Source: Elusimicrobiota bacterium (lineage in GTDB: Bacteria > Elusimicrobiota > Elusimicrobia > O2-12-FULL-59-9). From it: a stretch of 58,446 nucleotides of DNA. A program made the position numbers and the translations under genes. Positions within the stretch are counted from its first letter, which is position 1. Every line of letters begins with the position of its first letter. Positions 4,698 to 32,723 of the stretch are shown piece by piece. The DNA lies in contig JACQRQ010000261.1 of the NCBI GenBank assembly GCA_016206405.1, positions 1-58,446 on the forward strand, read 5' to 3'. The notes beneath the pieces are model-generated. The model did no database searches. It saw only the letters and a program-made list of their open reading frames with translations, and had not been told where the DNA came from.

Positions 4698-4701
4698 TCA
4701 A

Positions 4702-5496: not shown

Positions 5497-5524
5497 GATT
5501 CTCCTCGACCCGCGAAACCAGCCA

Positions 5525-12300: not shown

Positions 12301-12824
12301 GAGGCCGGCGGGTCTGAGATTAGGCGCTTTTCCCCAAGCATGACCTCTTCAATGCCCTGCCCGGCCGAATAGGCCCCGTCCGTTGATAGATTCGGCTCAG
12401 CGACCGCCTTCAAGTAGGGGGTCAATTCTCGGGTCCGAATTTGGGCCGCCTTAAGAGCGGTCGGCGGCGCGCCCTTTTGAACCGCCGCGGCGGGAAACCA
12501 GCGCGGGTTTGACGCGACCGAACGCGGTCCCCGCAAATGGATCGTGCCGCCGGTCTTCGTCCGGACGGCAAAAGCGCGATAGGGCCCGGCGGAAAGCGAA
12601 TCGTGTCGGCGGCCGGCCCCGGTCCGGCTCCTGCCCGCCACGGCTCCCAGCGCCTGATAGCAGGGGAGTCCCGGCGCGGTGACGATTAATGCCGCGCAGA
12701 GAACCGTCCCAATCAATTGCAGAGGCAACTTCTTATGCATGATACCTTTGAACAAAAAAAACCGCCCCGAACAAAAACCGGCCGAAAGGGCGGCTGCCGA
12801 AGCTTTCCTTAATGGAAGAGTCAT
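9333..12824 (-). CDS. Giant polytopic membrane protein (1163 aa as ORF), last gene of the giant-protein cluster
   Basis: The ATG at 12824 overlaps the upstream stop (ATGA). An alternative start at 12740 gives MHKKLPLQLIGTVLCAALIVTAPGLPCYQALGAVAGRSRTG, the shared leader. The rest is dominated by 20 or more hydrophobic segments. No enzyme motif recognised. Confidence 0.8.
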   Translation of the reverse strand: MTLPLRKASAAALSAGFCSGRFFLFKGIMHKKLPLQLIGTVLCAALIVTAPGLPCYQALGAVAGRSRTGAGRRHDSLSAGPYRAFAVRTKTGGTIHLRGPRSVASNPRWFPAAAVQKGAPPTALKAAQIRTRELTPYLKAVAEPNLSTDGAYSAGQGIEEVMLGEKRLISDPPASVESGVVAGPLGARAPPAAPESKSHFGKWAGSLSLAGMLSVAAPAAVSAGAAGGLSLSAPIASALSEVVSGLSLALPSLAVTLPAGALYGYLSYKIIQRAARTIAQGKPDPVVGYDTTPLVVGGLALLFFGLGIGSVPGFAEAWPSFSGLIHQTMGVRLFDLPFSVPSAWNPVIFGAHFPLFSLIGSLAALKGSRSGLKRLQGDFEREQKNREAQSESAAMKKPEVRPEASTPSLAASSGEKRESWTAAFQNHFKSLWRVSPVPVESALSRAPEPPGPPLDMVGLVGNAVAKILSVGVFTVTGIAFYVVAMDKAGGPGLALLMSLGSLLSISLTNWTGKLFDENAPVYGMSLSTLVRLAANAAFAFFYDRNFLEWPFMVLLGLSLVNGWILNSIMNGERIVLRDMIGSSSAKIQDPAVQKAHRKIIHERQKTTNAIFALFFVGIQVLFGIFLKGGGWVDAYGASAIYKLGAVAQIPIVLIYLATLPDRAELDQAALTGRAATFTERLKKTGAKSRELLKLLVSMAVSMLFTTPKRWIQRSARTIKEIFSRAFNKGTPADASSASGKPSSVWRYILIAGVTLTAAAVAIWLQSPLVASLAFLVIVPLSPGFKFLWNNAFMRTAMVYTTMGAVVIFPLRNVVLPILAKAAESFPGMAAASHGTGQGLVLGLLIGALFMGQLLGNIAMVNLPDSWKPFSGIYKSQTLAENAKPFHHFARQAVLSALVTGLLALTMPQLGWWSLGAIPAVIYLTAPMLPGTSILRSAMLAGVWAWIYFFLFPQGAAVAPLWKALAATLGSGLTAGIFAAAPYVSEKVWVQGNTASLLSVVALGALYLKFQYVPLLFVALAVIGLFNNPAGHILTSYFREESYSKKYYEFRARIDAVQSAFFAIALSFGYGFLRYLAGVSGTPAAFQSVAMPVIGAGLVAMAVLYWGAPKVYPLKSAAAKSVSEKFPNWLRKIFNGRDGETLAGLKEIAGGWTSLFRPKGPRNG

Positions 12825-15523
12825 TTGGACCTGCCGTGCCTTTCCTCCATCCTGGCCTGCCGCTTTTTCCGCGCCTCCATTTTCGCGCGCTCATCCTCCG
12901 TAGTCTTGATCATCACCGCGACTTCCCGCATGATTTTGCCCCGCGCCTTGTCCAGGGCGATGGCGCTGAACTCGGGCTCCACCCATTCGGAAGGGTAAAA
13001 AAACACGACGCGAACACCTCTAAGCTTCCGCTTCTCTCCGCCCGCCGACTTATAAGGCACAGGAAGCTCCGCCCATTTAGAGGCGTCCATAAACTTGCCG
13101 CTCTCCGTCACCGCGAACAAGCGGTAGATCAAAACCTGCTCGTCTTTTTCCAACTGCCAGGCGGGCCGGACGGAATTGGTCTTGAAGTCGGCGATGACTA
13201 AATCGGCCACCTCGCCCTTGGGGTCCCGCTTGACCAGCACCAGGTCAAAAGCGCCCCGGAACATATAGCGGGCCAGCACATCGCCGACTTTGCGGGAATT
13301 TTTCCCATACTTGCGCATGATGTAGCTGATGGGAATCTCCCGGCCGTATACCTCGTAGCCTTCTTGCGCCATAAACGCCGCGACCTGATCCACGATGCCG
13401 ATGGCTTCCTGGGCGCCGCCGAATTTATAATCTCCCAGGTTGTCGCCCCGCTCGGGCATGAGGATGGGGCCTTCTTCTTCCGCGAGTTCCTGCTCCCAGA
13501 CGGCGTAAAATTTGGCCGTGATTTCATCCGGGGTCGGACGGCGCCCCTGATGCTGGATTTGATCCAGGGCCCAATCCAAAGTATAGTGCGCCACATGGCC
13601 CTTGAACGTCTGCGCGGGGGTGCCTCCCCTCCGCCGGTAATAGAGTTTTTCTTCGATCCAGCGGTGTCTGTCATATTTATAGGACTTGATGGACGAAGCC
13701 GAAGTTCTGTAATCGTTGGGACGCTGTTCGGTCCACTCGCCTAAAATCGCCTGCATTTCCACGTCGAGCAGAGCATTGCCTTCGATGCCGGAGTCTTTTT
13801 CAAAATACTCCGCCGGCTTGACCGCGTCCGGCACCGCTTTTAAGAGTTCCGGATTTGGAGTCAGCCACACCGATTCCCTTTGGCTGGCGCGCGTTCCGAG
13901 TTGGTCGCCCATCGCCGCATAGATGCGGCCCACCGAATCAAGCGCCGTGGTCTTGCGGATTCTAAATTTGATTTTCCCTTGATCGTCCAACCGCACTTCA
14001 GGCGTAAAAGCGAGCTGCTCCGCCGCCAATTTTTCCTGAAAGCGACCTTTCCACACTTCGGCAGAGACGCCCTCCGGCAAATCGATTTCGAAGGCGCCGG
14101 CGCTCGAGTTCTCCCGCAGCCCCTCCTGTTGTTCGGGCGTCCAGCCTTGCTCCACCGCCAAGTCCAAGGTTATCCGCCGGAAGGCGCGAAAATCATCCGC
14201 GCTGAAGCCGTTGACGCTGACAGGCGAGGGACGGCCGTTTTTATAGATGGAAATAACGGAGCCTCCTTCGCTGATTGAGACGAAGTTGTAGGATAGAAAG
14301 GAGTTCCGCATGGACGGCTGCAAATTCTTCAGCAACACTTTATGAAGAAAATCGTCGTTTTCTCTAGAGCCGAACTCCCGTCCGTCCTGCAGCACCGCCA
14401 AGGTGATGCCGTTTTTCTTCAAATTGGTCATATAGTCGACGATCCTCGCGGAAGGCGGCTCCCGGATCAGCGCCGCGTCGAGAAAAACCACCTTGGGATG
14501 GTAGCGACTCTGTTCCCTCAACGGGTGCCCATCGGAAAGCACCGCGGGGACATCCGGCCGGGCGGCGGGTTCCCAATCCTTGTCTTTGGACCGGTCCTTT
14601 TCCTCTTTCTCCCGGCGGATAAGGTCCGTCGATTTCAGGCTGATCACCCGCACAAGACTCTTGAGATTGACCGGGTCCACGGACAAAAGCTTTCGCAATT
14701 CGGCCTTATTTTTCCATTCCCCATAGCGCTTTGCGTTGCGGATATCGATATGTCTTAAAATTCCCACCAGCTTTTCGCGCAGCCACCCCAGGCCTTTGCT
14801 CTGGATTTGACGTTCGCTAAAAAATTCCATTCCCCGAAGATCCGATTTGCTCAGCTTCTCGATGGGCACAGTTTTGGCGGCCGACACCTGGCTCACAAAG
14901 GCTCCGCCTTGCCCTTTGTCCCGGGTTTTACCCGTCGTCACCTCGACGCGGTTTCCCGCTTGATAGTCCCGCCAATAGGCGCGGCTGCTCTCAAACCACT
15001 TGCTCCCGGGTTCTCCTCGGATTCTTCGCACGACGACGAACTCCTTGGCGGGGTCCCCGTTAAATCGAAGCGGACGAAGCTGCTTTCCGTTTCCATATAC
15101 CGGAGGCCTCGCCGAAACGCCGCCCGCCTCCTGGCGGTCTAATCCCAAGGGCTGGTCGTAAACTTGCCGCAGCATCGCGTAGGCGAACTTGATATCGTCT
15201 TCCTTCCCCTCCCCGGCGTTCTGATTTTCCATGTCGGCGGCGAATTTCTTCAAAGCCGGCGTCGCCGACGGAGCATGGGGGGAAAGATCGGCCGCCGGAG
15301 CGCGGCTGCCCGTTTTGCCGGCCGTCATGGTCGAAAGCGGGTTGCCGGCCTCCTCCCGAATCACGGGCTTATTGAATCCGCGGGTCTTTTTAACCGGCCG
15401 GGCGGGCCGTTGGATGCGCCCCGAGGCAGGCCGGGAGGACCGTCCGCGGAAAGCCGCCGCCGCCTCCTGCAGGGGGGAGAGGGCCAAACCCAGAACCAGC
15501 AACAAACTCAGCGATTTTTTCAT
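12821..15523 (-). CDS. Giant exported protein (900 aa) with a degenerate HAD-like module and a C-terminal PD-(D/E)XK (RecB-type) nuclease-like motif set
   Basis: Leader MKKSLSLLLVLGLALSPLQEAAAAFRGRSSRP. HAD-like VVFLDAALI lacks the second Asp. The C-terminus has GAFDLVLV, LVIADFKTN and EQVLIYRLF, then a basic tail KMEARKKRQARMEERHGRSK. ATGA overlaps at both ends. Confidence 0.8.
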   Translation of the reverse strand: MKKSLSLLLVLGLALSPLQEAAAAFRGRSSRPASGRIQRPARPVKKTRGFNKPVIREEAGNPLSTMTAGKTGSRAPAADLSPHAPSATPALKKFAADMENQNAGEGKEDDIKFAYAMLRQVYDQPLGLDRQEAGGVSARPPVYGNGKQLRPLRFNGDPAKEFVVVRRIRGEPGSKWFESSRAYWRDYQAGNRVEVTTGKTRDKGQGGAFVSQVSAAKTVPIEKLSKSDLRGMEFFSERQIQSKGLGWLREKLVGILRHIDIRNAKRYGEWKNKAELRKLLSVDPVNLKSLVRVISLKSTDLIRREKEEKDRSKDKDWEPAARPDVPAVLSDGHPLREQSRYHPKVVFLDAALIREPPSARIVDYMTNLKKNGITLAVLQDGREFGSRENDDFLHKVLLKNLQPSMRNSFLSYNFVSISEGGSVISIYKNGRPSPVSVNGFSADDFRAFRRITLDLAVEQGWTPEQQEGLRENSSAGAFEIDLPEGVSAEVWKGRFQEKLAAEQLAFTPEVRLDDQGKIKFRIRKTTALDSVGRIYAAMGDQLGTRASQRESVWLTPNPELLKAVPDAVKPAEYFEKDSGIEGNALLDVEMQAILGEWTEQRPNDYRTSASSIKSYKYDRHRWIEEKLYYRRRGGTPAQTFKGHVAHYTLDWALDQIQHQGRRPTPDEITAKFYAVWEQELAEEEGPILMPERGDNLGDYKFGGAQEAIGIVDQVAAFMAQEGYEVYGREIPISYIMRKYGKNSRKVGDVLARYMFRGAFDLVLVKRDPKGEVADLVIADFKTNSVRPAWQLEKDEQVLIYRLFAVTESGKFMDASKWAELPVPYKSAGGEKRKLRGVRVVFFYPSEWVEPEFSAIALDKARGKIMREVAVMIKTTEDERAKMEARKKRQARMEERHGRSK

Positions 15524-18264
15524 GAGGCTGAATTCTTCTTAAATTTCTTGAGCTCCTGCTCCTTGGCCTCAAGATCCCGCTTATTTTCCTTCGCCGTCTT
15601 CTTCTTCTGCGCGGCCTCCTTTTTGAGACCGCTCAATTCAGAATCATAAAGCTTTCGAATCTTGCTCTCGGCCGCCGACAGTAGATTCCGGGCCTTTTCG
15701 ACCACGAATTTCAGGCCCTTTTCCCAGGCCTCTTTCACCAACTTTTCCCGCCTTTTCTTCAGCTCAGCCAGCCGCTTTTTCTTCTCCATCCCGATAACTT
15801 TCGCCTTCTTCAGCGACTCTACTTTCTCTCGCCTCTTGACCGTCTCCAAGTTTTTCTTCATTTCTCGGATTTGCTTGGCCATTTCCTTTTGCTTCTGCAG
15901 TTTGGCCAGATACTGCTGGAGCTTGGGGTCGCCGGGCTCTTCCCGGTTTTCCCAGAAGTCGTTGAAGTCCTCATCGCTCTCCATGGCCTCAATGAGGCTG
16001 GTCAGCTTTGAAACGGACGCGTCGGAATCCTTCTGCGTGTAGAGCTCGTTGAAGCCGTATGTCTGCGTGGCGTAAACGAATTCGGCGCCCGTTTTCACCG
16101 AGGGACGGAGGCTGTAGTTCTGCTTCTGCCGGAGCGTCAGGCTCAGGAGTTTGGCCAGAATTCTGCCCCGCCAATCAAAGGGAGCGTTGCCATACCTGAA
16201 GAGCAAGGCCAGCACTTTATCGGTTTGCCCGTTTTCCTTAAACGACAGCACGGCGTCCGGTTCGATATTCACTTGATACTTGCGCTTGATGCGAGGGTCG
16301 GCGATGTTGCCGACCAGTTTGAACTTAGAGTCCCCCGCGATATTGGTGAAGCCGCGGATGGCGTTTTGGGCGAGTTCCTCGGGCGTTTTGGGGAACCAGT
16401 GCTGCTGATATAAGTTATAAACGACCGCCTTGGCCCTTTCCAACATTTCCTGGCTCGTCTTGCGCCACTGCGGATTCTTGCGCAGATAAACAAAAACGGG
16501 GCTCAAATTGACCTGCCGGCCGGGCTGCAGAGGGTTGTTCCATATTTCCTCCAGCAGGCGGATGCCGGCATGCACGTTCAAAAACCGGATTTTCCCAACC
16601 CGGAGATTCCTTAAAATATCGATGATCACAGCCCGGGTGATGATGCCCAGATACAAATAATGCTTCCCCTCTCGAACCTCCGAATTGCCCTGAATGATGA
16701 AGCGGCTCCTTCCGGCCTCCTGCATCGGCAGCCAATAATCAACATAGGAGCGAAGCTTGCTGAAATTGATCTTGATGGGTTTAAGCCATTGGTCCCCCAG
16801 AAAGCCGCGCAACGCCTCCAGCAGCGACTGGCCGTCGCCGACGATTTCCTGGTAAGGCCCCTCCCCGTTTTCCTTATAGTCGGGCAATTTCCCGATCATT
16901 TCCGCGACCAATTGAGGGAACCTTTTGGGATACTGGATCACCATCATGTTCTTCGGCTGGTTCTTGACGTCTTCTTTGCCCGCAAATCGCTCCACAAATT
17001 GCTTGTCGACCGCTCCCAAAAGCCGGGTGACATTTCTTTGGAGGCTGTATTTATTGACGCTGTAGGAAAGCTTTTCATCGGAAGCCGGGTCATCGGGCGT
17101 CAGCCGGTAAAATCGCAGCATGCGCAGAGGGTCTCTTTTGCCGGCGCGGTCGATGGAGCGGTTGAACTGCCCCACCCAGGCCGTTTTTTGAGTTTTTTTG
17201 AGTCCAGGCTTGAATTGAACCCTGAAAATGTACTCGCCGTCAAAGCTCCATTGAACGTCTCCCTGAGCCAGTTTGCCGCTTTCCACCAGAGAGCCGGTGA
17301 CGCTTTCGGCCAGGCCCTGGAGCATCTGCTTGTGATTATCCGAGAAACCGTCTTGGTCCGGAATGATGGATTTGGTTTTATCGGATTCAGCCGTTTGAGG
17401 AGCGCTGCTCTCGCTTTGGCCTTTGCCCTGCGCATAGATCATGGCGCCGTTGTAGGCCACGATGAGCATCCGGTTGTTTTGCCGGTATTTCAAATGGTTT
17501 AAGAGAACGCTGTTTATGTAATCCGGGCCCTCAGCGGTGTAAAAAACAACGCCGTAGCCTAGTTCCAAAGACCGGTCGATGGCCTGAGCGATTTCGGGAG
17601 CGGCGGGCTGGCCGTTGAAAACATCGGGGATGAAAATGATCCTGGCATTTTTGGCCGGTTCTTCGCTGGGACCGGAATTTTCCGCCACAGGCGGTTTGGG
17701 CGGAGGAGGCGTCTGCGGAGGCTGAGCCGTGGGGGGCTTATCCTCAGCGGCGCCCTCAGCTTGCCGACCGGAAGCCTTCGAGTCCGAGTCCGCCGGGTGG
17801 GCCTTTTCGTCGCCGGCGTTTTGCTCGACTGAACCGGCCGCCACAATACCCTCGCCGGCGTCCTGAGGGGACGCGTTTTGATACATCTCCTCCAAACGAT
17901 CGTTCAACCCCTTCTGCGGCGATGCATGTGAATCGGATTCCAAAGACAACTTGCCGGCGACGCTTAAAGCCTCGACGGGAGAGCCCGCCAATGCTTTCGT
18001 GATTTCCTCCGTTGAAAGGACGCGTCCGGCGATAGAAGGCTCCGTCCGGCCATCGACTCTGGGAACTTTGAAATCCTTGGGAAGCTGAGGCTTCATCCCC
18101 GCGGAGCGACCCGGCTGAACGGTCGCCATCCGGAAAGCTTTCGCCTTTCGCGCCGCCCGCGAGCGGACCAGCGGTCCCGCCGCCCAAACTTCGGCGGCCG
18201 GAAAAGGCAGCGCCCCCCACAGCAGGCTCATAGTTAAAACGATGGAAATTATTTTTTTCGTCAT
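15520..18264 (-). CDS. Giant exported protein (about 914 aa from the ATG at 18264) with a Pro-rich linker, a degenerate HAD-like module and a Lys-rich coiled-coil tail
   Basis: ORF 15520..18366. The ATG at 18264 (AGGAAAG 7 nt upstream) gives MTKKIISIVLTMSLLWGALPFPAAEVWAAGPLVRSRAARK. Linker PPTAQPPQTPPPPKPP, then ARIIFIPDVFNG, which is HAD-like with no nucleophile Asp. The last ~130 aa are K/E-rich heptad-like. Upstream of 18264 lies a hairpin terminator, which argues against the longer ORF. Confidence 0.8.
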   Translation of the reverse strand: MTKKIISIVLTMSLLWGALPFPAAEVWAAGPLVRSRAARKAKAFRMATVQPGRSAGMKPQLPKDFKVPRVDGRTEPSIAGRVLSTEEITKALAGSPVEALSVAGKLSLESDSHASPQKGLNDRLEEMYQNASPQDAGEGIVAAGSVEQNAGDEKAHPADSDSKASGRQAEGAAEDKPPTAQPPQTPPPPKPPVAENSGPSEEPAKNARIIFIPDVFNGQPAAPEIAQAIDRSLELGYGVVFYTAEGPDYINSVLLNHLKYRQNNRMLIVAYNGAMIYAQGKGQSESSAPQTAESDKTKSIIPDQDGFSDNHKQMLQGLAESVTGSLVESGKLAQGDVQWSFDGEYIFRVQFKPGLKKTQKTAWVGQFNRSIDRAGKRDPLRMLRFYRLTPDDPASDEKLSYSVNKYSLQRNVTRLLGAVDKQFVERFAGKEDVKNQPKNMMVIQYPKRFPQLVAEMIGKLPDYKENGEGPYQEIVGDGQSLLEALRGFLGDQWLKPIKINFSKLRSYVDYWLPMQEAGRSRFIIQGNSEVREGKHYLYLGIITRAVIIDILRNLRVGKIRFLNVHAGIRLLEEIWNNPLQPGRQVNLSPVFVYLRKNPQWRKTSQEMLERAKAVVYNLYQQHWFPKTPEELAQNAIRGFTNIAGDSKFKLVGNIADPRIKRKYQVNIEPDAVLSFKENGQTDKVLALLFRYGNAPFDWRGRILAKLLSLTLRQKQNYSLRPSVKTGAEFVYATQTYGFNELYTQKDSDASVSKLTSLIEAMESDEDFNDFWENREEPGDPKLQQYLAKLQKQKEMAKQIREMKKNLETVKRREKVESLKKAKVIGMEKKKRLAELKKRREKLVKEAWEKGLKFVVEKARNLLSAAESKIRKLYDSELSGLKKEAAQKKKTAKENKRDLEAKEQELKKFKKNSAS

Positions 18265-18363
18265 AGTGGCTTTCCTAAATTGAAGTTTGCCGGCCCTCTC
18301 TCCATTCAATCTCATTCTAACCCGATTATCCGGCCCCCGCATGGGCCATTGGTCCCAGCAGGG

Positions 18364-18396
18364 CAAAGAAAAAGGGCCTATCGAATCATAGGCCCT
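18364..18396 (-). terminator. Rho-independent terminator-like hairpin between the 1088-aa and 948-aa genes
   Basis: The minus strand reads AGGGCCTAT-GATTCG-ATAGGCCCT followed by TTTTTCTTTG. That is a 9-bp GC-rich stem, a 6-nt loop and a U-tract, starting 40 nt after the stop at 18436. Confidence 0.7.
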
Positions 18397-18435
18397 AAGA
18401 CCTGCAAAAACTTGCCGGATTTTTCCGCTAGCAAT

Positions 18436-21400: not shown

Positions 21401-21702
21401 TTTTTCTCGGCGCCTCCGCCGCCGAGCGCCGCAACCTGTGAAACTGAGGCGTAGGCGCCGGGACCGGCGGCAATCGTCGCCGGCAGCGCAGTATTCAGAA
21501 ATCGCGTCTGGATCGCGCCCTTCGGGCGGGTCCCCCGCCGGTGCAGGGAATAAGAAAAAGATTTTGAGGTCCCGGATGAATTTTTGCCGGCGCGGCGCAG
21601 CGAGGCCGCATGCGCTAAGGCCTGATAAGGGGCCAAGCCTGGGGAAATCAATATTAGGGCGGCGACTATTATCGAGGCGGCGATTTTTCGCGTTTTTTCC
21701 AT
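18436..21702 (-). CDS. Giant membrane protein (1088 aa): shared leader, canonical HAD-phosphatase-like module, large polytopic C-terminal domain
   Basis: Leader MEKTRKIAASIIVAALILISPGLAPYQALAHAASLRRAG. HAD motif I LIQFDFDKTVV (20956-20994), motif II-like VAVITARP, motif IV-like FADAMGSFGAD. From about residue 500 onward there are 12 or more hydrophobic segments. The start is 1 nt after the upstream stop. Confidence 0.85.
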   Translation of the reverse strand: MEKTRKIAASIIVAALILISPGLAPYQALAHAASLRRAGKNSSGTSKSFSYSLHRRGTRPKGAIQTRFLNTALPATIAAGPGAYASVSQVAALGGGGAEKKRGPAALGRIFENLPAFYKKLKKAPKRALDEIYENGAALEADGATSAWGASPRHAQNKAAALTVAGGKPEADARRKPPNLSAALIDDLPTPGWAYRLKRAAASLILKRFPSAPLSIPRLSPSDYEAFIRYYERRTPDLIQFDFDKTVVDDVERSPRRLLAAVEALLAQNIPVAVITARPFDSERGMKRLFIDRLERKAGLILATRSGSRLDWFDSEEKIHTLESPLRSEAEQREIRRVLMRSARSLGLSQGVDFDVEVDNRADLLLRFKPGRNGIEALTGSVALALKSGRLPDIATFKDDELTISRYSKADSVRQVVAVLAQQGRTVHPQKILTFADAMGSFGADTYMARSFPGSIAFSAGEDLDAGLDNAFPFPEAKVAYTVNFLRRVASAARRPASMSAKANPAPAIKKFAWSGIMAGGLLLPTSLSGGLAPRALSGFDLSFLGSYAPWLLSVAATAWFVHGWIKAPNARTRPPLSHAERHLNLDPKFEKHVGRASQWIQGGLQRFEGVIRYFTRVIPERSRNIKWWVLQVGRMMMAAGLSVYLAGLPEYTGHLTAGFLSPLAAFGIYEMVFELSNGLGEFFAGPRSDKARAVQMMKGSLGKLAVVIALIPGMWLLGMPLNVTLLFVVAGLSGFFEGVYYSIEDLADKRVVGTTETVYNKTEGIDSVLTNTVGFVTGFYVADYFIGLMDAWRGAGAGWAFSPLPYVLALMLTMSLYSFAFSKRYRHAIGNPVAKAISWVQQLPAWTRRQYDQLRQTTPAILQGFKLIRNNPFLTLFNTLNFYLVLEPAVLLTLLQYATAYLPGQWPKIIATTFLGKVLAGAMMIVFNPSKNQNTHHWWKNVGTAAYVASGLGFLFFWGALPIYGGTPLGALNWALGSLMAFALLRGPLHFIGLSLKRKAMYEPDNNMKPHMASMEGVITLYEKILYAAGTALFFTFLAGREPLANMTLMAVVLTAFGGFQIFAAHRLVFSGKSNGWLKSWKLWKRN

Positions 21703-21703
21703 T

Positions 21704-24700
21704 TCAAGTGAGAAAATGCGTGATATAAAACAACACCGTCGACCATCCCACGAAACCCAACACGCCGGCCATCAGGGACTTTTTCAAAGCGCCCGCTTTA
21801 TACATCTGCCAGAAAATCGCCGCCTGCAAGGTGATCCCGCCGATGGTGCAGGCCAAGGTGTTGATCCAGAACCACGGATTGGTCTTCGCCACCAAAAGCA
21901 AAGTGGGCAATAAAAAGGCGTTGGCCAGCAAGGGCAGCGCGACATAAAACCAATCCATGCCGGCCAGCAAGTGCGCGTTGCCGCTCTTTATATTTTGGTG
22001 ATTGGTCCAAAGCTGCTTGGCGGGAAAAGATAAAAATATCACATTGGCGGCAAAATTGAGAGGGCCGGTGACGGGCTGATAATGCGCGGCGACGATGGGC
22101 GGAAGGAAAATCCATGAACTCAGCATGGTCACCGCGGCCAACGCCCATTTGATCTTGGTGTAATTGTCCATGTCCTTGAGTTGATTAATCTTGGACTGAA
22201 GCCATTTCACCTTGTGGGACAGAGGCGAGAGCGTGCGCTTAAGCGCGTGGACTCGGGTTTCGCCTGGAGCCAATTCCATCTCGAAATCCGTTTTTTCTCC
22301 GGGAAGCCGAAAGCGCACAGGGGCCGGTTGGTCGGAGGGATTGGTCAGTACGGCGAGAGCCACATCTTGCATGATGGCTTCATTTTTTGGCCAGAGAAGA
22401 TACCCCGCCCAGGCTTCATCCCCCTGGCCTTGAATTCGCTCCGGCTGCGAAAAATTATTCAATAAGCGCCTCTTAAGTCTCTTTCCAACGGCATCGCCTT
22501 TTCTGCCATCGACGGGCTTGAATATTTCCTCAACCCTTTCAACGAGCGCGGCGTCGCCGGCCGGAGTCAACCAATGCGCGGCCGGAAACAACCGCGCCAT
22601 CCAATGGATCCCCGCGACCGGCGCCGGAAGGGCCAAAATTTCCCCGATGCCTCCTTTTTGCCAATGCTGAAAGACCTGCCAATCGATGGCCCGGCCCGCC
22701 TCGCCGGCTTTGCCGCTTTCCAAACGGGTTTGCCATCCGATTTGAGAATAATATGGAAGCCCGCCGGAGTCCTCCAGCGCGATGTCGCCCTGATTGATGA
22801 CGGCGTCGAAACCGGCGGCCGCCAGCGACCCGCGGTGAACATTGCCCTGGGCTAGAAAGGCGATCCCGGGATATTCCATTTTAAGCTCGGATATCAATTC
22901 CTCCCAAAACTCCCGGGCCGGCATTTGAACTCCGTGGTTTCTGGCAAATTCGCCGTTGAGCAGAAGCTCCGGATTTTCTATGCGGAACCCATCGATGCCG
23001 AATTTGGAAATCCAATGCCGCACGGTTTCCAGAGCCCACCGCCGAGTCTGAAGGCTGGAATAATCCAGTTGCGCCGCGTTGGGATGATGGCGAAGCCGCT
23101 CCCCTTCTCTCATGGCGCTCAGCCGGACCAACAGCGGCCCCTGTTCGGGATGCAGGATGGGGGCCCACCCTTCCGGAGGCCGGCGCAATTCCTCCGCGGT
23201 AGCCTTCCGGTGGATGATCATGCCGATGCTTTCAGTCAGGAAAGCGGAATCCAAAGAGACGTGATGCAAAGGCAAATCCATGATCACGCGCAGAGGTTTT
23301 TCCACCCTGGCGGAAGCTTGGCGGACCCTGCGGGTGAATGCCGCCAAATCCTGCGAAGCGCCCAGCGCCGGATTGACCAAGCCAAAATCAATGGGCGCAA
23401 AAGGAGCGCTGACATCCCTGAGCATTGCCGAACCGATGGAAAACGTATTGACGTCCTGTTGGTCCGCCAATGCCGCTATTTCCTCCGGCGACCAAGCGCC
23501 CAGCGGCTTCGCGGTCTTGGGCAGTTCATAGACCTGCATTTCTCGCGCCCACGCGGATAGATTGTTCTTCATGTGGCTTTGCTGCAGCTCAGGAACCTTC
23601 TTTTCCAGAAAAGCCGTAAGCTGCCGCCGGAGATCGTGAGGATTCTTTTTAATGTCCAGAAGGGATTTGAGTTCGGACCGGACAAGACCCGCCCATGATG
23701 AAAAAGAGCTCAAAGGCTGGAGCAATTCCTCGATCATGTAGGCGAAGAGCTGCGGCATTTGGCCGGACAGGGCGCGGTCGATATCCTCCGACTCTGCTCT
23801 CTTTCGCGCGGCCTCAAGGCCTTCGTGCCGACTCTCCAATTCATCGGCCTCTTGATTGAGGCGCCGGATATCGCGGTCCAACTGCGTCAAGGCGTAGAGA
23901 ATGCCCTCCAGACCGGCGGAGGGCGCAAACCGGCTGCCGCGGCCCAAATTAAACGCGAACGGCGCGAGCCTGGAATGGTCCGGCAACAGAGGCCCAACGC
24001 TGAGAATCTGTCGCTCCTCCAAAGACAGCCGCCATGTGTCCAGATTTTTTTGCCGGATTTGAATCTGCTGTTGACCGGCGTCGCGGCCGGCGGCGCTCTC
24101 CGATGAGCTTAACAAGGCCGCGGCGAAGGAAGGAATTAGCCCGCGGCGGTTGGCCCGCTGCACCCAGCCGGAAATCCAGCTCAACTGCCGCTTCGCCTTG
24201 AAATTCGCCCATTTTTGATCGGAGCGCTGATTCTCCAGCGATAGAAGGCGCAGATAAAGCCTCAAGCTTTCCTGAATGACCGCCGGCTTATTCTGCAGCA
24301 TCGCCTTCAGGTTTTCGAGCAGGGATTCGGGATCTTTCGCGTCGTCGGCGGCGAAAATGTTCTCAAGCCATATCAGAAGCCCCGGATATTTTTTGATCTC
24401 CTCCACGTTGAAACGGCTGAAAAACGCCTCCAAATAGGGAGCCGGCAGAGCCAGAATCATCCGGCTGGACATGCGCTGGCGCTGCAAAAACTCCAGCAAC
24501 GGGCTCTCGGAGCTGAACGGCGCGGCGGAACCGAAATCCAAACTCACGGTCGCCGCCAATTCGGGTAAATTATTTTTTTGCCTGTCGGCGTTGACTCCAT
24601 CCAGTTTTTTAAGCGCCCAAGCCAGCCTTTCCAAGGCGACCGCCTCCGTCCCCCCTTTTTTTCCCAAAACTTCCTCGTTCCAAACCGAAGAATCACTGGA

Positions 24701-27700
24701 CCCGGTCGGGTCCTTTTTGGACCCCAAGCGGATGAGTACCGCGCCGGCAGGAGGCTCCACAACCTCGGTTTCATCTTGAATCGGAAACACCAGCCCGGGG
24801 ACTCGCGCCAAAAAGCCGCTTTTTTCCAAGACCTCATTTAAGGCCGTCATTTTATTTTCGGGAATCGAAAGCGTAATATAACCGGGTAGAACGGCGCGCA
24901 CCGCGCCGCCCAGTTTGCGCACCTCTTTGAGTGGAAAATCAACCCTCTCCATGGCCCATGCGGCCTGTCCCTCGGATGCGGCGGTCTTGTCGGGACCGTA
25001 CAACAATATGGCATCGGAGAGAATGGATTTCTTGCCCGGAGGCGCCTCCACGATGAGATGCAAGCCGCTGATCTCGGAGTCGGCGCCGGCGATGCCGGCT
25101 GGATCGGGCGAAAGCCGGAGAGGCACTTTTTGGATATTGGCGAAAATCTGCGCCAAAAGACCAAGTTCATCATTGGGATATTTTCCCAATTCCTTGTATT
25201 TTTCCACGAAATCCAGCATCGCCTTGCGAATGGCGGCGGAACTCCTCAACCGCGGGATCACCGCCTGGGGACGCAGCCGGACCAACTGCACGTAAAACCG
25301 GATAACCTGCGCCGCGATCCGCCGGCCGACCGGATCGTCGCTGGCGGCCTGAACGGCGTGCACGAACGCTTCGTCGGGCAAAGAATCGGCATCCGCCAAG
25401 CCCTTCTCGCGCAGGGCATCGAGAGCCAGTTCGCGGATATTGACCCTTTCCATCGGATCGGAAACGATGGAAGCCAGAAAAAGGGTGATTGGATCTCCCC
25501 AAGAAATTTTCTCATCCACGGTCTCGCGCAGAGCCCACAGCACGCTCCACCGGGTGAATTTGGATTTCGAGGGGTTGTATTCCTTTAGAAATTCCAGCAG
25601 GACCGGCAGGGACTCCTCCGTGTGGCCGCGCCGCGCCAATCCCGCCGCGGCGTAAAGCCGCGCCTGCCCGGAAGATTCCTTAAAAATCTTCTGCAGCGCG
25701 TCGGTGGATTCCGGGGATTCAATTTTCCACAAAGCCTGAAGCGCGTGCTGCCGCAAACGCTCGTCTTGGGCGGCGCCGGCCTGCGTCAAAGCGGGGACGG
25801 CCGCCGCGGTCCGGAACTCGCCCAAAGCGAAGACCGCGGCGGCGCGGTTAAGCCAGGGCTCGTTCTGGTCGAGAACCGTTTCAATAAATGCGGGCAGAAC
25901 CTTCTTGACCTCCGCCTCAAAAGCCGCCCTCCAAACCTTTTCCAGCTCCCTGGCTCTTTCCGGCGTCAACTCCAGAACGCCGGTCTTGGCCAAAAGCCAG
26001 CCATACTCCTCGTTATCGAGAACGGGCCTGCCGAATGCTCCTTTTGAAAAGCTCATGATTTTCGGCGCGGCATCGAGAATAATGGCTTTGAGCGGCGGCG
26101 GCGTCTTCTCCCAGGAAGGGTGAGAGCGGACTTGCTCCAAAACCTTTTCCACGGCTTTTGCCCGCGCGCCGTCGAAAGGCGCATTGGAAAGCGCCTCCAT
26201 ATCACGGTAGCGGCGTATCGCCTGATAGCCTTTAGGCTCGCTGAAGATTTTCGTGGCCAATTGCGCCGCATGATAGGCGTGCGCCTGGCCGGCGCCCATC
26301 CCCTGATGCGGAAGCCCCATACTTATGGCCGTCGCCATCAAAATGTATTTTATCGACTGGTGAGCGTTTTCAGAGAAGAACTTCCTGGCCTCACCATAAT
26401 CTTTGCCGCGAGCCCAAAGCAGCGTATAAATGACGGTCTGATAAATGGCGCCGCCTATCCCGGCGATCATCGGAGAAGCCATAGATGTTCCGGACATCCA
26501 AACGTAGCGCGCCCCCTTGACCACGACGTCGCACAAGTCTTTCACGCGGCTTGATCCGCCGGCGGCCAAAACCCCCTCAAATTCTCCTTTCAAGTAGAAG
26601 AAGCACTCCTTGAGCCACGATCGCACGCCTCGAATAGTGCCGCCGACCGCGGTGATGTCCGGTTTGGAGACGTATTTACCCCGGACCGGGTCCCATACGT
26701 CTCCCTGGCTGCTGAAACCCGACAACTCTCCGAGATGGTCTTTTTCTCCCTTGGTCAGGCTCGCGACCGCCATGACGGCCGGGTTGGCGGCCGGAGAACC
26801 GACGGTCTGTCTTTGGGGACCGCTGTTTCCGGCGGCGACGGATACGAAAACGCCGGCTTTTTCAATCACCCTGCCCAAAAATTTGGCGAGTTCCGAACCA
26901 GGATGTCCCTCGCTGCCCAGGCTCAAATTGACGACCTGCAGCCCCTTCTGGAGCAGGGCCACCACGCCGCTTTGAATGACGCTCATTCTCGCGCCGCTTT
27001 CGTCATCGGCGAAGACCTTGGCCATGGTGGCTTTTGCGCGGGGCAAAAATCCCTGAATCCATCGCTTTCGGAACAGGCTCACCGCCTTGCCGCCGATGAT
27101 GGATATCACATGCGACCCATGCAGCTGCGGATCATCGGACTTCTGGTTGACCAGGTTTACCTCTTCGACGTGCGAAATCATGGGGTGCGACGGATTGCGG
27201 CCGGTATCCACCGCGCCGGCGCTAATTTGCGTCCGGGAAAGGCGCGGCAGGACGTAGACTAAGGACGCGAAGAACTGCCGCAGGCGCCGGAGCAAGGACA
27301 AAGGCTTGCCGTCCGGGCCGCGCATTTGCGAAACGATTTTCCAGCCCGCTTTGAGAGCCGCCGCGTATGAAATCTCCCCCCCGTCGATCCCTGTTTCCCG
27401 GAGCGGGTTGAAATGGTGCAGTTGCGGACTGATGTGCATGAGCGAGCTTACGCGGTACTGGAACAAGGTGGAAGGAATTCCTCTCTCCCGGAACCGGTCC
27501 TGCATTTGAGCCGCGACAACCTCCGGAACGCTCAAAAAAGCGTGGTTGCCGTATTTTTCCTCAATCACCGTGATGATCTCAGCCCCTTTGTCGAGGAGCT
27601 CTTCCAAAAAGGGCGAGCGGCCGGAAGCCGTGTCCGGAACCACGGTTCCACCCTCGATGCCGGCCCGGATCAACTCGCTTTTTGCCTCGACCGCCTCCTC

Positions 27701-29722
27701 CTCGTTGAAACGCGGCCAAAGAATCGATTTCTGGATCGGCGCCGGCAGCTTTATTTTTATTTCCACGTGAGGTTCCTGTTTTTGAAGGAGCAAAAAGGGA
27801 GCCTCCACGCCCGCCCGGACGGCCTGAATTTTGAATAGACCCGCTTGCGGGCTGCGCCAGGACTCAAAAAGCCGAGTTAAAAACTGCACGTCCGTTCCTT
27901 CCGGCAAATCGATGGCCGCGATTCCCCCCAGCTTCAAGCTGCCGTAGAGGGCATCCAGCCATTCAAACGCCATCTCCCCTGTGAGCCGGTATCTCGCCTC
28001 CGCCGCCTGCCATATTTGGGTGATTTGCGCGCGCTCCAGACGCTCCATGTCAAGCGGGTTTTTGGAGTCCACCGTCTCTGCTGGAATGTCGGGAACGCCT
28101 CTCAACTGCGCCAGGCGCCGGGCGGCCTTGCCTTGGAAATAGCGCTCCACCTCCACAATGGCGGAGGCGGCCTGGGATTTAATCTCCGGGGACATCAGGT
28201 TTTCGAGAATCCGGACGGAGTTTTTTATCCGCAGCATCCTGAAACGGCGGCGGTTTTCCTTCGATTTCAGGGCGGATAGGATGTCCCCCGCAGGCAAAAC
28301 GGAAGATTCAAACCGCGCCTGGTGGCCCGAAAGGAAGTCGATGCCCGTTTGCTCTTCGCTCATCTTGGCCGCCGGGCTGAGGTTGTCCGGCGCCGCATCT
28401 TGCCCCTGCGCGTCTTCCATATAATATAGGCCCACGCGGTACGGAAAATTGGAGGCCAGAGTCGCCGACCATCGATCCAGAGCCGTTTCCAACGCATTGG
28501 AGAAAGCCTGAGGCGCCACCGGCGTGGGCTTGCGCCACAGATTCGAGGCCCACCGGTATAGATACGCCTCCACCGGCCAGAAGGCTTCCCACAAGGCGTC
28601 CATCGCATCCCGGAGACTTCCGCGCGGCTCGGGCATTCCCCGGTTGAGATGGTTCAAGTAGACCGTGCCGAATTCGAGCGCGCGCCTTAACTCGCCCGGA
28701 GACAAAGTGACGATCGGATCAATGAAAAATTTCCTCTGCTCCCGGTCGTAATAAAAAGGCTTCCAAAACCGGCGGTATTCATCCGGAATAAGCTGCAGCG
28801 GCCCGGAAAGCTCTTGCCCGGCGACGACGCCGTCATTTTCCGTTCCCAGCCATGTAGGGTCGATGACGCCCTCAGCGGCCAAACGACGGATGTTCTCCCG
28901 CGCTTGATACGGCAGAAGCTCGCCCCTTTTTTTCCAGCGGTAAATTTTCAGGCCCAATTTCCAGGCCAAAACGGTCCCGAAGCCCAACAGGCCGGCCTCA
29001 ACGGCGATTTGAGGCATCGCGAAAGCCCCCGTCGCCCCGAATGCGGCCGAAGGCGAAGCCATAGCTCGCGCGGCGCTCACGGCTACCAGGCCGGCGGCCA
29101 GCATCGCCGATTTAAGAGGCGAAGGAATGCGGCTTGGAGCGCTTTCCGGCTTGGCCGGCGGGGCGGGAGAAGGAGCGATCTCAAAATCCAGATTGGAAGG
29201 CGCGGAGGGCCTGAAATGCGGCCGGATTCCGGCGGAGGTCGCATCCGGAGCCATGACGGCGGCGCCTTTCAAATCGGTCGATGGCGAAATTCCATCAAAA
29301 GCGGCGGCTTCTATCCAGTAATCTTCGGAGGAAAGGTCGCCCTCAATTCGACCGCCTTTCCCGGCGGAGAAATTTTCCGGGACGGATACGGCGCCGCCCG
29401 CGGACGGTTTCGCCAAAAATCCGTGGACTCCGGGCAAAACGGAGAAAATTTCCTTCACCCGGCGCCAAACGGCCGGGCGCTCCGCCGGCTTCATGCGCGT
29501 CTGAAAATTCTTGACGTCCGCAAGTCCAGACACCCGCGCCGGCGAGTTTCTGCGAAGACCGGCCCTGGGCGCGGCGGGCGATGTCCGCATCCGGACGCCG
29601 CGCTGAGACCGGGCGCGGACCGCGGCCATAGCCTCATAGCAGCCCGGGCCCGGCGCCGCCACGATCAGAGCCGAAGCCAGCAGCGCGGCGGTTATTTTCT
29701 TTAAAAATCTCATGTCGGCCAT
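21704..29722 (-). CDS. Giant multidomain protein (ORF 2684 aa): shared leader, S8 subtilase, HEAT repeats, GH13-like module, C-terminal multi-TM anchor
   Basis: ORF 21704..29758. The likely start is at 29722 (MADMRFLKK, GAGAGGG upstream) or 29713. Leader ...ALIVAAPGPGCYEAMAAVRARSQRG. Domain evidence is given in the three sub-features below. The C-terminal ~150 aa hold about 5 hydrophobic helices. Confidence 0.85.
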   Translation of the reverse strand: MADMRFLKKITAALLASALIVAAPGPGCYEAMAAVRARSQRGVRMRTSPAAPRAGLRRNSPARVSGLADVKNFQTRMKPAERPAVWRRVKEIFSVLPGVHGFLAKPSAGGAVSVPENFSAGKGGRIEGDLSSEDYWIEAAAFDGISPSTDLKGAAVMAPDATSAGIRPHFRPSAPSNLDFEIAPSPAPPAKPESAPSRIPSPLKSAMLAAGLVAVSAARAMASPSAAFGATGAFAMPQIAVEAGLLGFGTVLAWKLGLKIYRWKKRGELLPYQARENIRRLAAEGVIDPTWLGTENDGVVAGQELSGPLQLIPDEYRRFWKPFYYDREQRKFFIDPIVTLSPGELRRALEFGTVYLNHLNRGMPEPRGSLRDAMDALWEAFWPVEAYLYRWASNLWRKPTPVAPQAFSNALETALDRWSATLASNFPYRVGLYYMEDAQGQDAAPDNLSPAAKMSEEQTGIDFLSGHQARFESSVLPAGDILSALKSKENRRRFRMLRIKNSVRILENLMSPEIKSQAASAIVEVERYFQGKAARRLAQLRGVPDIPAETVDSKNPLDMERLERAQITQIWQAAEARYRLTGEMAFEWLDALYGSLKLGGIAAIDLPEGTDVQFLTRLFESWRSPQAGLFKIQAVRAGVEAPFLLLQKQEPHVEIKIKLPAPIQKSILWPRFNEEEAVEAKSELIRAGIEGGTVVPDTASGRSPFLEELLDKGAEIITVIEEKYGNHAFLSVPEVVAAQMQDRFRERGIPSTLFQYRVSSLMHISPQLHHFNPLRETGIDGGEISYAAALKAGWKIVSQMRGPDGKPLSLLRRLRQFFASLVYVLPRLSRTQISAGAVDTGRNPSHPMISHVEEVNLVNQKSDDPQLHGSHVISIIGGKAVSLFRKRWIQGFLPRAKATMAKVFADDESGARMSVIQSGVVALLQKGLQVVNLSLGSEGHPGSELAKFLGRVIEKAGVFVSVAAGNSGPQRQTVGSPAANPAVMAVASLTKGEKDHLGELSGFSSQGDVWDPVRGKYVSKPDITAVGGTIRGVRSWLKECFFYLKGEFEGVLAAGGSSRVKDLCDVVVKGARYVWMSGTSMASPMIAGIGGAIYQTVIYTLLWARGKDYGEARKFFSENAHQSIKYILMATAISMGLPHQGMGAGQAHAYHAAQLATKIFSEPKGYQAIRRYRDMEALSNAPFDGARAKAVEKVLEQVRSHPSWEKTPPPLKAIILDAAPKIMSFSKGAFGRPVLDNEEYGWLLAKTGVLELTPERARELEKVWRAAFEAEVKKVLPAFIETVLDQNEPWLNRAAAVFALGEFRTAAAVPALTQAGAAQDERLRQHALQALWKIESPESTDALQKIFKESSGQARLYAAAGLARRGHTEESLPVLLEFLKEYNPSKSKFTRWSVLWALRETVDEKISWGDPITLFLASIVSDPMERVNIRELALDALREKGLADADSLPDEAFVHAVQAASDDPVGRRIAAQVIRFYVQLVRLRPQAVIPRLRSSAAIRKAMLDFVEKYKELGKYPNDELGLLAQIFANIQKVPLRLSPDPAGIAGADSEISGLHLIVEAPPGKKSILSDAILLYGPDKTAASEGQAAWAMERVDFPLKEVRKLGGAVRAVLPGYITLSIPENKMTALNEVLEKSGFLARVPGLVFPIQDETEVVEPPAGAVLIRLGSKKDPTGSSDSSVWNEEVLGKKGGTEAVALERLAWALKKLDGVNADRQKNNLPELAATVSLDFGSAAPFSSESPLLEFLQRQRMSSRMILALPAPYLEAFFSRFNVEEIKKYPGLLIWLENIFAADDAKDPESLLENLKAMLQNKPAVIQESLRLYLRLLSLENQRSDQKWANFKAKRQLSWISGWVQRANRRGLIPSFAAALLSSSESAAGRDAGQQQIQIRQKNLDTWRLSLEERQILSVGPLLPDHSRLAPFAFNLGRGSRFAPSAGLEGILYALTQLDRDIRRLNQEADELESRHEGLEAARKRAESEDIDRALSGQMPQLFAYMIEELLQPLSSFSSWAGLVRSELKSLLDIKKNPHDLRRQLTAFLEKKVPELQQSHMKNNLSAWAREMQVYELPKTAKPLGAWSPEEIAALADQQDVNTFSIGSAMLRDVSAPFAPIDFGLVNPALGASQDLAAFTRRVRQASARVEKPLRVIMDLPLHHVSLDSAFLTESIGMIIHRKATAEELRRPPEGWAPILHPEQGPLLVRLSAMREGERLRHHPNAAQLDYSSLQTRRWALETVRHWISKFGIDGFRIENPELLLNGEFARNHGVQMPAREFWEELISELKMEYPGIAFLAQGNVHRGSLAAAGFDAVINQGDIALEDSGGLPYYSQIGWQTRLESGKAGEAGRAIDWQVFQHWQKGGIGEILALPAPVAGIHWMARLFPAAHWLTPAGDAALVERVEEIFKPVDGRKGDAVGKRLKRRLLNNFSQPERIQGQGDEAWAGYLLWPKNEAIMQDVALAVLTNPSDQPAPVRFRLPGEKTDFEMELAPGETRVHALKRTLSPLSHKVKWLQSKINQLKDMDNYTKIKWALAAVTMLSSWIFLPPIVAAHYQPVTGPLNFAANVIFLSFPAKQLWTNHQNIKSGNAHLLAGMDWFYVALPLLANAFLLPTLLLVAKTNPWFWINTLACTIGGITLQAAIFWQMYKAGALKKSLMAGVLGFVGWSTVLFYITHFLT
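22240..23400 (-). other. GH13 (alpha-amylase family)-like module with substituted catalytic positions, inside the 2684-aa protein
   Basis: Region I-like PIDFGLVNPALGASQDLAAFTRRV...LRVIMDLPLHHVS. Region II-like WISKFGIDGFRIENPE has Glu where the nucleophile Asp is expected. Region III-like GIAFLAQGNV has no Glu. The C-terminal beta-sandwich-like stretch is VALAVLTNPSDQPAPVRFRLPG...ELAPGETRVHAL. Confidence 0.55.
25290..25900 (-). other. HEAT/PBS-lyase-type helical repeat region, inside the 2684-aa protein
   Basis: Repeated pattern of roughly 30 aa: NRAAAVFALGEFRTAAAVPALTQA..DERLRQHALQALWKIESPESTDALQKIF..ARLYAAAGLARRGHTEESLPVLLEFL... Confidence 0.6.
26350..27260 (-). other. Subtilisin-like (peptidase S8) domain with a complete catalytic triad, inside the 2684-aa protein
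   Basis: ISAGAVDTG (Asp codon 27206-27208), LHGSHVISIIGG (His codon 27119-27121), oxyanion VAAGNSG, and WMSGTSMASPMIAG (Ser codon 26483-26485), in the canonical D-H-N-S order. Confidence 0.8.
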
Positions 29723-32699: not shown

Positions 32700-32723
32700 T
32701 CCGCACCGACCGGCTTGGCCGCC

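Follow-up and report, generated by a model that had tools for sequence, protein, structure and literature searches.

A sharply conserved N-terminal leader on proteins of unrelated function in Elusimicrobiota, a possible membrane anchor or sorting tag

Why should giant proteins that are encoded side by side, and that share little else in sequence, begin with nearly the same residues? The question is raised by a stretch of 58,446 nucleotides from a groundwater bacterium of the Elusimicrobiota (contig JACQRQ010000261.1 of assembly GCA_016206405.1; the whole stretch is called the window below), in which five consecutive open reading frames (ORFs) on the minus strand, named p2684, p1088, p948, p900 and p1163, fill positions 9333–29722. 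An earlier note on this DNA had placed an unusual, shared leader on all five proteins, with an Arg-rich stretch behind it, and had taken it for a signal anchor or a system-specific sorting tag rather than a plain signal peptide. The five ORFs and their N-termini lie where they had been placed, and coordinates and readings agree. Judged by its sequence and its distribution, the leader is an undescribed N-terminal tag, present in Elusimicrobiota on at least 84 protein clusters that have no function in common, and it probably anchors or sorts its carriers rather than exporting them.

The leader and its distribution

The leader opens three of the five proteins in strict form, namely p2684 (MADMRFLKK-ITAALLASALIVAA-PGPGCYEAMAA, 29591–29722), p1088 (MEKTRK-IAASIIVAALILIS-PGLAPYQALAHA, 21580–21702) and p1163 (MHKKLPLQ-LIGTVLCAALIVTA-PGLPCYQALGA, 12612–12740), all on the minus strand, which score 56.8, 52.6 and 49.6 bits, respectively, against a profile of 85 leaders. 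Each of them matches the pattern PG..[CP]Y[QE]A[LM], which a translation of the whole window in all six frames contains at these three N-termini only, so that the near-exact motif previously read from three of the proteins is borne out. By contrast, the N-termini of p948 (MTKKIISIVLTMSLLWGALPFPAAEVWAAGPLVRSRAARK, 18145–18264, minus strand) and p900 (MKKSLSLLLVLGLALSPLQEAAAAFRGRSSRP, 15419–15523, minus strand), which also have an Arg-rich flank, are signal-like without being the specific leader. They score 4.7 and −3.2 bits, whereas an ordinary signal peptide of the window (35599–36582) reaches 6.5 bits and no other ORF of the window exceeds that value; all that links them to the leader is the general pattern of a hydrophobic N-terminus with a Pro and several small residues in a row. 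Because p948 and p900 score in the range of ordinary signal peptides, a leader on all five is too strong a claim, and it stands for p2684, p1088 and p1163.

The leader is also the sole significant similarity among the five proteins in an all-versus-all BLASTP comparison, with E values of 4e-5 for p1163 and p2684, 4e-4 for p1088 and p1163, and 0.04 for p1088 and p2684. The DNA encoding it differs at synonymous positions between the window proteins, and therefore its conservation points to selection at the peptide level and not to recent duplication. A comparison of p1088 (21598–21702) with its counterpart in a 97%-identical strain (locus L001, 5164–5268) reveals four amino-acid changes in the first 35 residues, among them Ala to Val at position −3, while the PGLAPYQ core is kept (PGLAPYQ.LA). 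The leader of p1088 thus evolves no more slowly than the body of the protein, while its core stays.

To find further carriers, a profile of five leaders was searched with HMMER against 1.84 billion protein representatives, which returned 84 protein clusters at E ≤ 0.001. The match begins within the first 32 residues in 83 of them, and the remaining one has an internal Met just upstream. The consensus consists of [K/R][K/R], 14 hydrophobic residues ending in ..AALI.x[A/S], and then P-G-L-[P/G/A/S]-[C/P]-Y-[Q/E]-A-[L/A/F/M]-A-[Q/A]. Its spacing is invariant across carriers: exactly 14 residues separate the last K/R from the Pro-Gly, and the distance from K/R to Tyr is fixed at 20 residues. The Gly is invariant, and conservation reaches at least 90% at the Pro, the Tyr and the two Ala residues −3 and −1 (alignment positions A28 and A30), while the Cys is swapped for Pro in about a quarter of the leaders. 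The N-tail carries a mean net charge of +2.5 and never less than +1. This sharp conservation and fixed geometry, together with the ordinary signal peptides that coexist with the leader in the same genomes, uphold the view that the leader is not a plain or generic signal peptide. A search with the leader profile had been proposed in order to see whether a defined protein set is marked; such a set did emerge, but it is not confined to the gene cluster of the window. The leader is thus neither the generic signal peptide nor private to this operon.

Where an organism is named for a carrier or a member of its cluster, it belongs to Elusimicrobia/Elusimicrobiota in 13 of 14 cases and to Patescibacteria in one. 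The latter case is a leader-bearing ABC exporter (P0049, MDE2019173.1) deposited as 'Patescibacteria group bacterium', which is either a mis-binned contig or the sole occurrence outside Elusimicrobiota. Other searches were less productive. A word-indexed search with the leader profiles returned only three very short proteins (P0002, P0003 and P0030), a profile of three leaders returned two short proteins with the same motif, one of them from a complete Elusimicrobiota genome, and a metagenome scan with the leader pattern returned five loci only. Five leaders had no match in NCBIfam at E ≤ 10, and the full-length proteins had no N-terminal match in Pfam or NCBIfam. The motif strings were in no paper found by our literature search, and a paper on groundwater Elusimicrobia genomes does not discuss signal peptides.

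There is a gradation from the strict leader to weaker variants, to which p900 and p948 are comparable, since one locus (L013) encodes two long FtsH paralogues of 1016 and 1070 residues (3639–6689, minus strand, and 10001–13213, plus strand), 3 kb apart, of which one has a strict leader and the other a degenerate leader (LLSPGASAYAALARA) that was missed by the profile. A different irregularity is seen in an Elusimicrobiota genome (CP096137.1; locus L002, 10001–10450), where a 50-residue 'gene' consists of the leader alone and an apparent frameshift parts it from an animal-haem-peroxidase protein of 1171 residues, whose membrane helices lie close to the C-terminal end. The frame of the linker there contains an ALEKFWTGG patch, and the frameshift is either a sequencing error or the mark of a pseudogene.

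Carriers, linkers and the side of the membrane

The carriers have a common architecture, in which the leader is followed by a low-complexity linker of 150–250 residues (A 18%, G 10%, S 10%, P 8.5%) and then by the body. The linkers lack Cys (about 45 carriers, residues +12 to +160 after PG). Weak motifs recur in them, including h-x-h-[R/K]-G-x-h-G immediately behind the leader, stretches resembling 'LSLSLP' and a block of the form ..M(S/P)xxxAK......MDRILG, the last in about 11 carriers; the linkers are more than mere spacers.

The bodies are mostly inner-membrane proteases, transporters and ATP-using enzymes. Pfam assigns the membrane proteases to the rhomboid, FtsH (AAA+M41), M48, M50 and CPBP/Rce1-like families, with M48 in four scanned carriers and in one neighbouring gene of locus L012, and the transporters and channels to MFS, ABC exporters, a CDF transporter and MscS. 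Further bodies are S8 with HEAT repeats, ATP-grasp/L-amino-acid ligase, GHKL ATPase, animal-type haem peroxidase and a giant BatA/vWA/DUF58 protein. The carrier with S8 and HEAT repeats (P0005) is a distant orthologue of p2684, with 26% identity in the body, 43% in the leader and a linker that cannot be aligned. A typical periplasmic or outer-membrane domain was found in none of the 38 carriers scanned, nor was any periplasmic binding protein or classical secreted family, while exported enzymes of the same genomes bear ordinary signal peptides, for example an M23 peptidase in the window (1897–2619) and an M13 peptidase in L012.

Tagged genes tend to be grouped, with three in the window operon, two in L005 that lie 5 kb apart, and two in L012. 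In addition, a scaffold of the Anantharaman 2016 metagenome (ANAN16; locus L015) has three in tandem, which encode an ABC exporter, a CDF transporter and an MFS-like protein. All three L015 proteins have the Arg-rich flank, and two of them cluster with proteins of 'Elusimicrobia bacterium RIFCSPLOWO2_12_FULL_59_9', with which the window is 97.4% identical over 10.8 kb of a contig. Given this second operon of three transporters in the same lineage and the at least 84 clusters of unrelated function, the idea of a tag specific to one system had to be given up. The CDF (Cation_efflux) ORF of L015 spans 3985–5445, and its public gene call begins at 4633, omitting the full leader and the Arg-rich linker; gene callers may systematically truncate such N-terminal modules.

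What follows the leader bears on the side of the membrane to which the linker belongs. The linkers of the ABC exporter P0049, the MFS proteins P0019 and P0071 and the rhomboid P0024 contain no hydrophobic segment (maximal 19-residue Kyte-Doolittle mean, KD19, ≤ 0.97), and the linker of the CDF transporter in L015 has no membrane-spanning segment either. Likewise, there is no transmembrane helix between the leader and the ATP-grasp domains of P0012 (171–580) and P0014 or the GHKL ATPase domain of P0060. Since ATP-dependent domains and cores of the ABC, MFS, rhomboid and CDF families that start with the N-terminus inside (N-in) follow without a spanning segment, the linker seems to be cytoplasmic, and, if so, a cleaved export signal cannot explain it. 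The earlier view that an anchor or sorting tag fits better than an export signal is thus strengthened, with cytoplasmic domains or N-in cores coming directly after leader and linker.

The Arg-rich stretch, on which that view had mainly been based, carries less weight. It is indeed present in all five window proteins, which have four to seven K+R and at most one D+E in residues 31–50. For p2684 the linker begins with AVRARSQRGVRMRTSPAAPRAGLRRNSPAR (29534–29623; K+R 6, D+E 0), and charge counts place the corresponding basic or Arg/Lys-rich stretches at 21520–21612 in p1088, 18091–18180 in p948, 15374–15451 in p900 and 12555–12644 in p1163, all on the minus strand. Clustered positive charges just after a Sec h-region or cleavage site hinder Sec export. 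In the lineage of the window the net charge of the flank (+3 to +6) equals or, mostly, exceeds that of the N-tail (+2 to +3), so that, according to the positive-inside rule, the flank should remain cytoplasmic. Across the family, however, the 15 residues after A-x-A have a mean net charge of only +1.07, with a range of −3 to +5. The Arg-rich flank is thus a trait of the window's lineage and not of the leader family; as an argument it holds to the extent that, in the window organism, the Arg cluster would reinforce a cytoplasmic orientation of the linker.

Taken together, we tentatively favour, with a rough probability of 0.45, the hypothesis that the leader is an Elusimicrobiota-specific helix-break-helix membrane anchor or sorting tag, which leaves the linker in the cytoplasm, and not an export signal. 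Two or three basic residues, a 14-residue hydrophobic helix, an [A/S]-P-G-L break and a short second helix (x-C/P-Y-Q/E-A-x-A) would together form a re-entrant anchor lodged in the cytoplasmic leaflet of the inner membrane, having probably acted beforehand as an uncleaved targeting sequence of the signal recognition particle (SRP)/Sec type. The basic N-tail and the 150–250-residue linker would both remain cytoplasmic, the Arg-rich start of the linker would block its translocation in the window organism, and the body, in most cases polytopic in the membrane or else an ATP-using enzyme, would come next. The conserved motif might then be the common handle by which a defined set of proteins is tethered or is recognized by a shared partner. 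We infer the cytoplasmic position of the C-side of the leader from the downstream domains, and that of the N-side from charge.

Structural considerations are consistent with this proposal. An AlphaFold2 model of the p1163 leader, built with an alignment of 60 leaders, has a helix at residues 7–21, a break at APGL and a second helix at 26–36 (predicted local distance difference test, pLDDT, 72.6), and a Foldseek search with the 44-residue leader model found nothing. A rough sum on the scale of Hessa et al. (2005) puts 19-residue windows of the leader about 3 kcal/mol behind the best transmembrane helices of the same proteins in their tendency to span the membrane. A close parallel is the re-entrant helix of the monotopic phosphoglycosyl transferase PglC, in which Lys7-Arg8 and Ser23-Pro24 motifs enforce a topology with both termini inside (PMC6133551). 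PglC has an N-terminal Lys/Arg dyad, about 15 hydrophobic residues, a Ser/BCAA-Pro break and a second helix; the leader has K/R, then 14 residues, [A/S/T]-P-G, and is predicted as helix-break-helix. Unlike PglC, however, the leader has a shorter and more polar second arm and is followed by a long disordered linker instead of a packed globular domain, and the two share no sequence homology. No phosphoglycosyl transferase domain was detected in the carriers scanned, so that the leader, by analogy only, would work like the PglC helix without being a member of its family.

Several points weigh against a re-entrant anchor. The near-invariant A-x-A with a bulky residue at −2, following the Pro/Gly, makes up, with the basic n-region and the 14-residue h-region, exactly the recognition pattern of signal peptidase I, and the anchor does not explain its conservation. 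Acidic residues, typical of exported mature N-termini, follow the A-x-A in part of the family, and family-wide the N-tail is more basic than the C-flank (+2.5 versus +1.07), as is normal for signal peptides. For a helix embedded in the membrane, the second arm (LxCYQALA) is short and has little hydrophobicity, and the S8 subtilase and haem peroxidase bodies would suit the outside of the cell. A positive-inside parity count over 35 carriers, which is crude and too noisy to decide, came to 20 versus 14. K/R residues are marginally enriched before the first transmembrane helix (2.5 versus 2.1 per 20 residues).

Competing explanations and known signals

Alternatively, the leader may be a true Sec signal peptide that is cleaved by signal peptidase I after a lineage-specific c-region (PGLxCYQALA), with the linker as a periplasmic tail and the body inserting afterwards. 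We regard this as rather unlikely, although it accounts for what the re-entrant anchor leaves unexplained, for the leader has the canonical n-h-c layout, from the N-tail of +2.5 through the 14-residue h-region and the Pro-Gly breaker to the A-x-A with its Ala residues conserved in at least 90%. It is not hydrophobic enough for a stable transmembrane anchor, as is typical of signal peptides, the A/P/S/T/V-rich linkers look like exported spacers, the S8, An_peroxidase and vWA bodies are commonly extracytoplasmic, and p900 and p948 resemble ordinary signal-peptide proteins. However, in a Sec signal peptide the sequence (PGLxCYQ) and spacing of the c-region would not be expected to be conserved across unrelated proteins as they are here. 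More importantly, export would carry ATP-grasp and GHKL ATPase domains into the periplasm, and it would invert the canonical N-in topology of the ABC exporter, MFS, CDF and rhomboid carriers, whose linkers offer no transmembrane helix. In the window organism the Arg cluster would come right after the putative cleavage site, and classical periplasmic cargo is not seen among the carriers scanned. Judging from domain biology, the mature parts of the carriers would not be extracytoplasmic, as those of Sec substrates are.

A further explanation, which could be combined with either topology, is that the leader marks the substrates of a dedicated processing or sorting enzyme, as an N-terminal mirror of PEP-CTERM, LPXTG and GlyGly-CTERM. 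These tags, which are paired with exosortase, sortase and rhombosortase, respectively, likewise combine a short motif, a hydrophobic helix and a basic cluster on many unrelated proteins, whereas the order of the parts is mirrored in the N-terminal leader, for which no cognate enzyme was identified. The motif is far sharper than membrane insertion alone needs, stands on unrelated bodies, is confined to one phylum, and tags genes that are grouped in operons (the window, L005, L012 and L015). Nevertheless, this explanation is improbable, as no candidate enzyme lies beside the tagged genes in the contexts examined, and the replacement of Cys by Pro in about a quarter of leaders argues against chemistry at the Cys. 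Single-domain response regulators stand beside tagged genes in three contexts; they were considered as partners and rejected, being only generically related (24–31% identity).

It is more doubtful still that the leader is an uncleaved bitopic anchor with its N-terminus outside and the linker inside. The model for such an arrangement is ZipA, which consists of an N-terminal transmembrane helix, a basic cluster, a long flexible linker and a cytoplasmic domain, and the window proteins have a comparable order, with a hydrophobic N-terminus, an Arg/Lys cluster and a long Pro/Ala-rich linker before the body. The basic post-leader flank in the window lineage and the apparently cytoplasmic linker and following domains agree with a ZipA-like anchor, and one membrane span would accommodate the fixed 20 residues between K/R and Tyr. 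However, ZipA has an uncharged, translocated N-tail and an unbroken helix, and no motif in common with the leader, whose N-tail, at +1 or more, disfavours its own translocation. Furthermore, the C-flank is less basic than the N-tail across the family, and the helix is interrupted by a Pro-Gly(-x-x-Pro) break and has poor insertion energetics.

That the leader is merely the generic signal-peptide consensus of the organism, or chance, is refuted for the three strict leaders and has almost no probability left, since, even if p900 and p948 are no nearer to the profile than an ordinary signal peptide, the strict leaders reach 50–57 bits against at most 6.5 for every other ORF of the window, only 84 matches (83 of them N-terminal) occur among 1.84 billion proteins, and ordinary signal peptides stand beside the leader in the same genomes.

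The leader also differs from other described classes of N-terminal signals. A twin-arginine translocation (Tat) signal (S/T-R-R-x-F-L-K) was rejected, because the n-regions are mostly xRK or xKK, with only sporadic RR and no F-L-K consensus. A lipoprotein signal (L-[AS]-[GA]-C) does not fit, because P, G, S or D stands before the Cys and Pro takes the place of the Cys in about a quarter of the leaders, whereas the lipobox Cys is invariant. Nor does a type IV prepilin (class III) signal, which is cleaved ahead of the hydrophobic segment, because the leaders have no G followed by an F/M-T-L-I-E motif. YSIRK-G/S, KxYKxGKxW and the autotransporter ESPR are n-region motifs of exported proteins in Firmicutes and Proteobacteria and are thought to direct these proteins to a special route or location. 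They resemble the leader in being lineage-specific motifs within an N-terminal signal on a subset of proteins, whereas the motif of the leader comes after the h-region and its cargo looks cytoplasmic or inner-membrane.

The operon of the window and the meaning of the leader

Within the window operon the genes are mostly tightly packed. That of p2684 (21704–29722) and that of p1088 (18436–21702) are separated by a single nucleotide, and the stop of p948 (15520–18264) overlaps the start of p900 (12821–15523), while, with the starts used here, gaps of about 170 and 80 nucleotides precede p948 and p1163 (9333–12740), respectively; all five lie on the minus strand. The start of p2684 at 29722 is supported by a Shine-Dalgarno sequence (GAGAGGG) eight nucleotides upstream of the ATG. 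Among the five, only p2684 has recognizable domains. After the leader and basic linker it contains two hydrophobic segments (residues 200–255), a Peptidase_S8 domain (833–1129), HEAT repeats, a weak alpha-amylase-like region and C-terminal transmembrane helices. The other four are orphans in Pfam, NCBIfam, PADLOC and the Protein Data Bank (PDB), where sequence searches with p1088, p900 and p948 gave no significant match, and a homologue search with full-length p1088 returned the protein itself only. In p1088 the leader and basic linker are followed by a HAD-like region and a C-terminal polytopic domain, whereas in p1163 nearly all of the remainder is a large polytopic membrane domain. The N-terminus is the sole hydrophobic segment of p948 and p900, which have no further transmembrane helix. 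A reading of the cluster as a defence system is without support, as PADLOC gave only generic S8 and HEAT matches on p2684.

The HAD-like region of p1088 is marked by phosphatase-like motifs, FDFDKTVVDD (DxDxT), VAVITARP and FADAMGSFGAD (20866–20982 and 20368–20400), and its sole Pfam match, S6PP, is below threshold (E 0.26). Degenerate HAD-like motifs occur at the equivalent place in p948 (17611–17640) and p900 (14465–14491), from which p1088, p948 and p900 may be distant paralogues. The C-terminus of p900 (residues 757–802; 13118–13255) has motifs resembling RecB/Cas4-type PD-(D/E)XK nucleases, GAFDLVLVK, DLVIADFKT and QVLIYRL, the first two on consecutive beta strands in a low-confidence AlphaFold2 model made without an alignment (pLDDT 45), for which Foldseek matches are meaningless. 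Pfam did not detect a PD-(D/E)XK domain in p900. Such a nuclease domain, if real, would argue for p900 acting in the cytoplasm.

A second patch common to p1088, p948 and p900 had also been noted. It lies at residues 126–143 of p1088 (KRALDEIYENGAALEADG, 21274–21327; LDEIYEN at 129), 121–138 of p948 (NDRLEEMYQNASPQDAGE, 17851–17904; LEEMYQN at 124) and 115–132 of p900 (YAMLRQVYDQPLGLDRQE, 15128–15181; LRQVYDQ at 118), all on the minus strand. A pattern fitted to these sites after the fact finds just the three of them in the six-frame window, and even one match was obtained in only one of 20,000 shuffles; pairwise BLAST of the region was not significant. A profile of the recurrent linker block ('block 2', ..M.P...AK......MDRILG), which is real in about 11 carriers, does not reach the window proteins, and the window patch in turn picks up no other carriers; a connection of the two is a visual impression only.

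Neighbouring genes in the window (4702–5496, minus strand; 31686–33140, plus strand; 50511–51563, minus strand) include a rhomboid protease with a DUF6576 tail beside polA, an M23 peptidase followed by a bactofilin, and a McsB-type protein arginine kinase, and directly upstream of the operon there is a weak DUF6588 protein (29774–30886). Scans of the window against Rfam and for tRNA genes were empty.

Few sequence codes in biology are as well understood as N-terminal signals. It is possible, though we would put it forward only as a tentative suggestion, that the leader represents an unrecognised class of bacterial N-terminal sorting signal, which resembles a signal peptide while its cargo stays on the cytoplasmic side, and which brings a defined set of proteases, transporters and ligases of the Elusimicrobiota inner membrane to one shared partner or membrane domain through a re-entrant anchor, a dedicated recognition or processing enzyme, or both; the A-x-A could then be an unconventional cleavage site. 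A phylum-wide motif that has all the formal features of a cleavable signal, and that stands before ATP-grasp domains, GHKL ATPases and N-in transporters, challenges automated prediction of localisation, and SignalP would probably call the carriers secreted. For this poorly known phylum, the leader points to an unstudied step of targeting, tethering or processing. Its profile defines a set of proteins that the cell treats alike, comprising FtsH, HtpX-like M48, site-2 protease, rhomboid, CPBP, ABC, MFS, CDF, ATP-grasp and HAD proteins as well as the giant orphans of the window, and it thereby gives a handle on the function of an otherwise unannotatable 20-kb operon.

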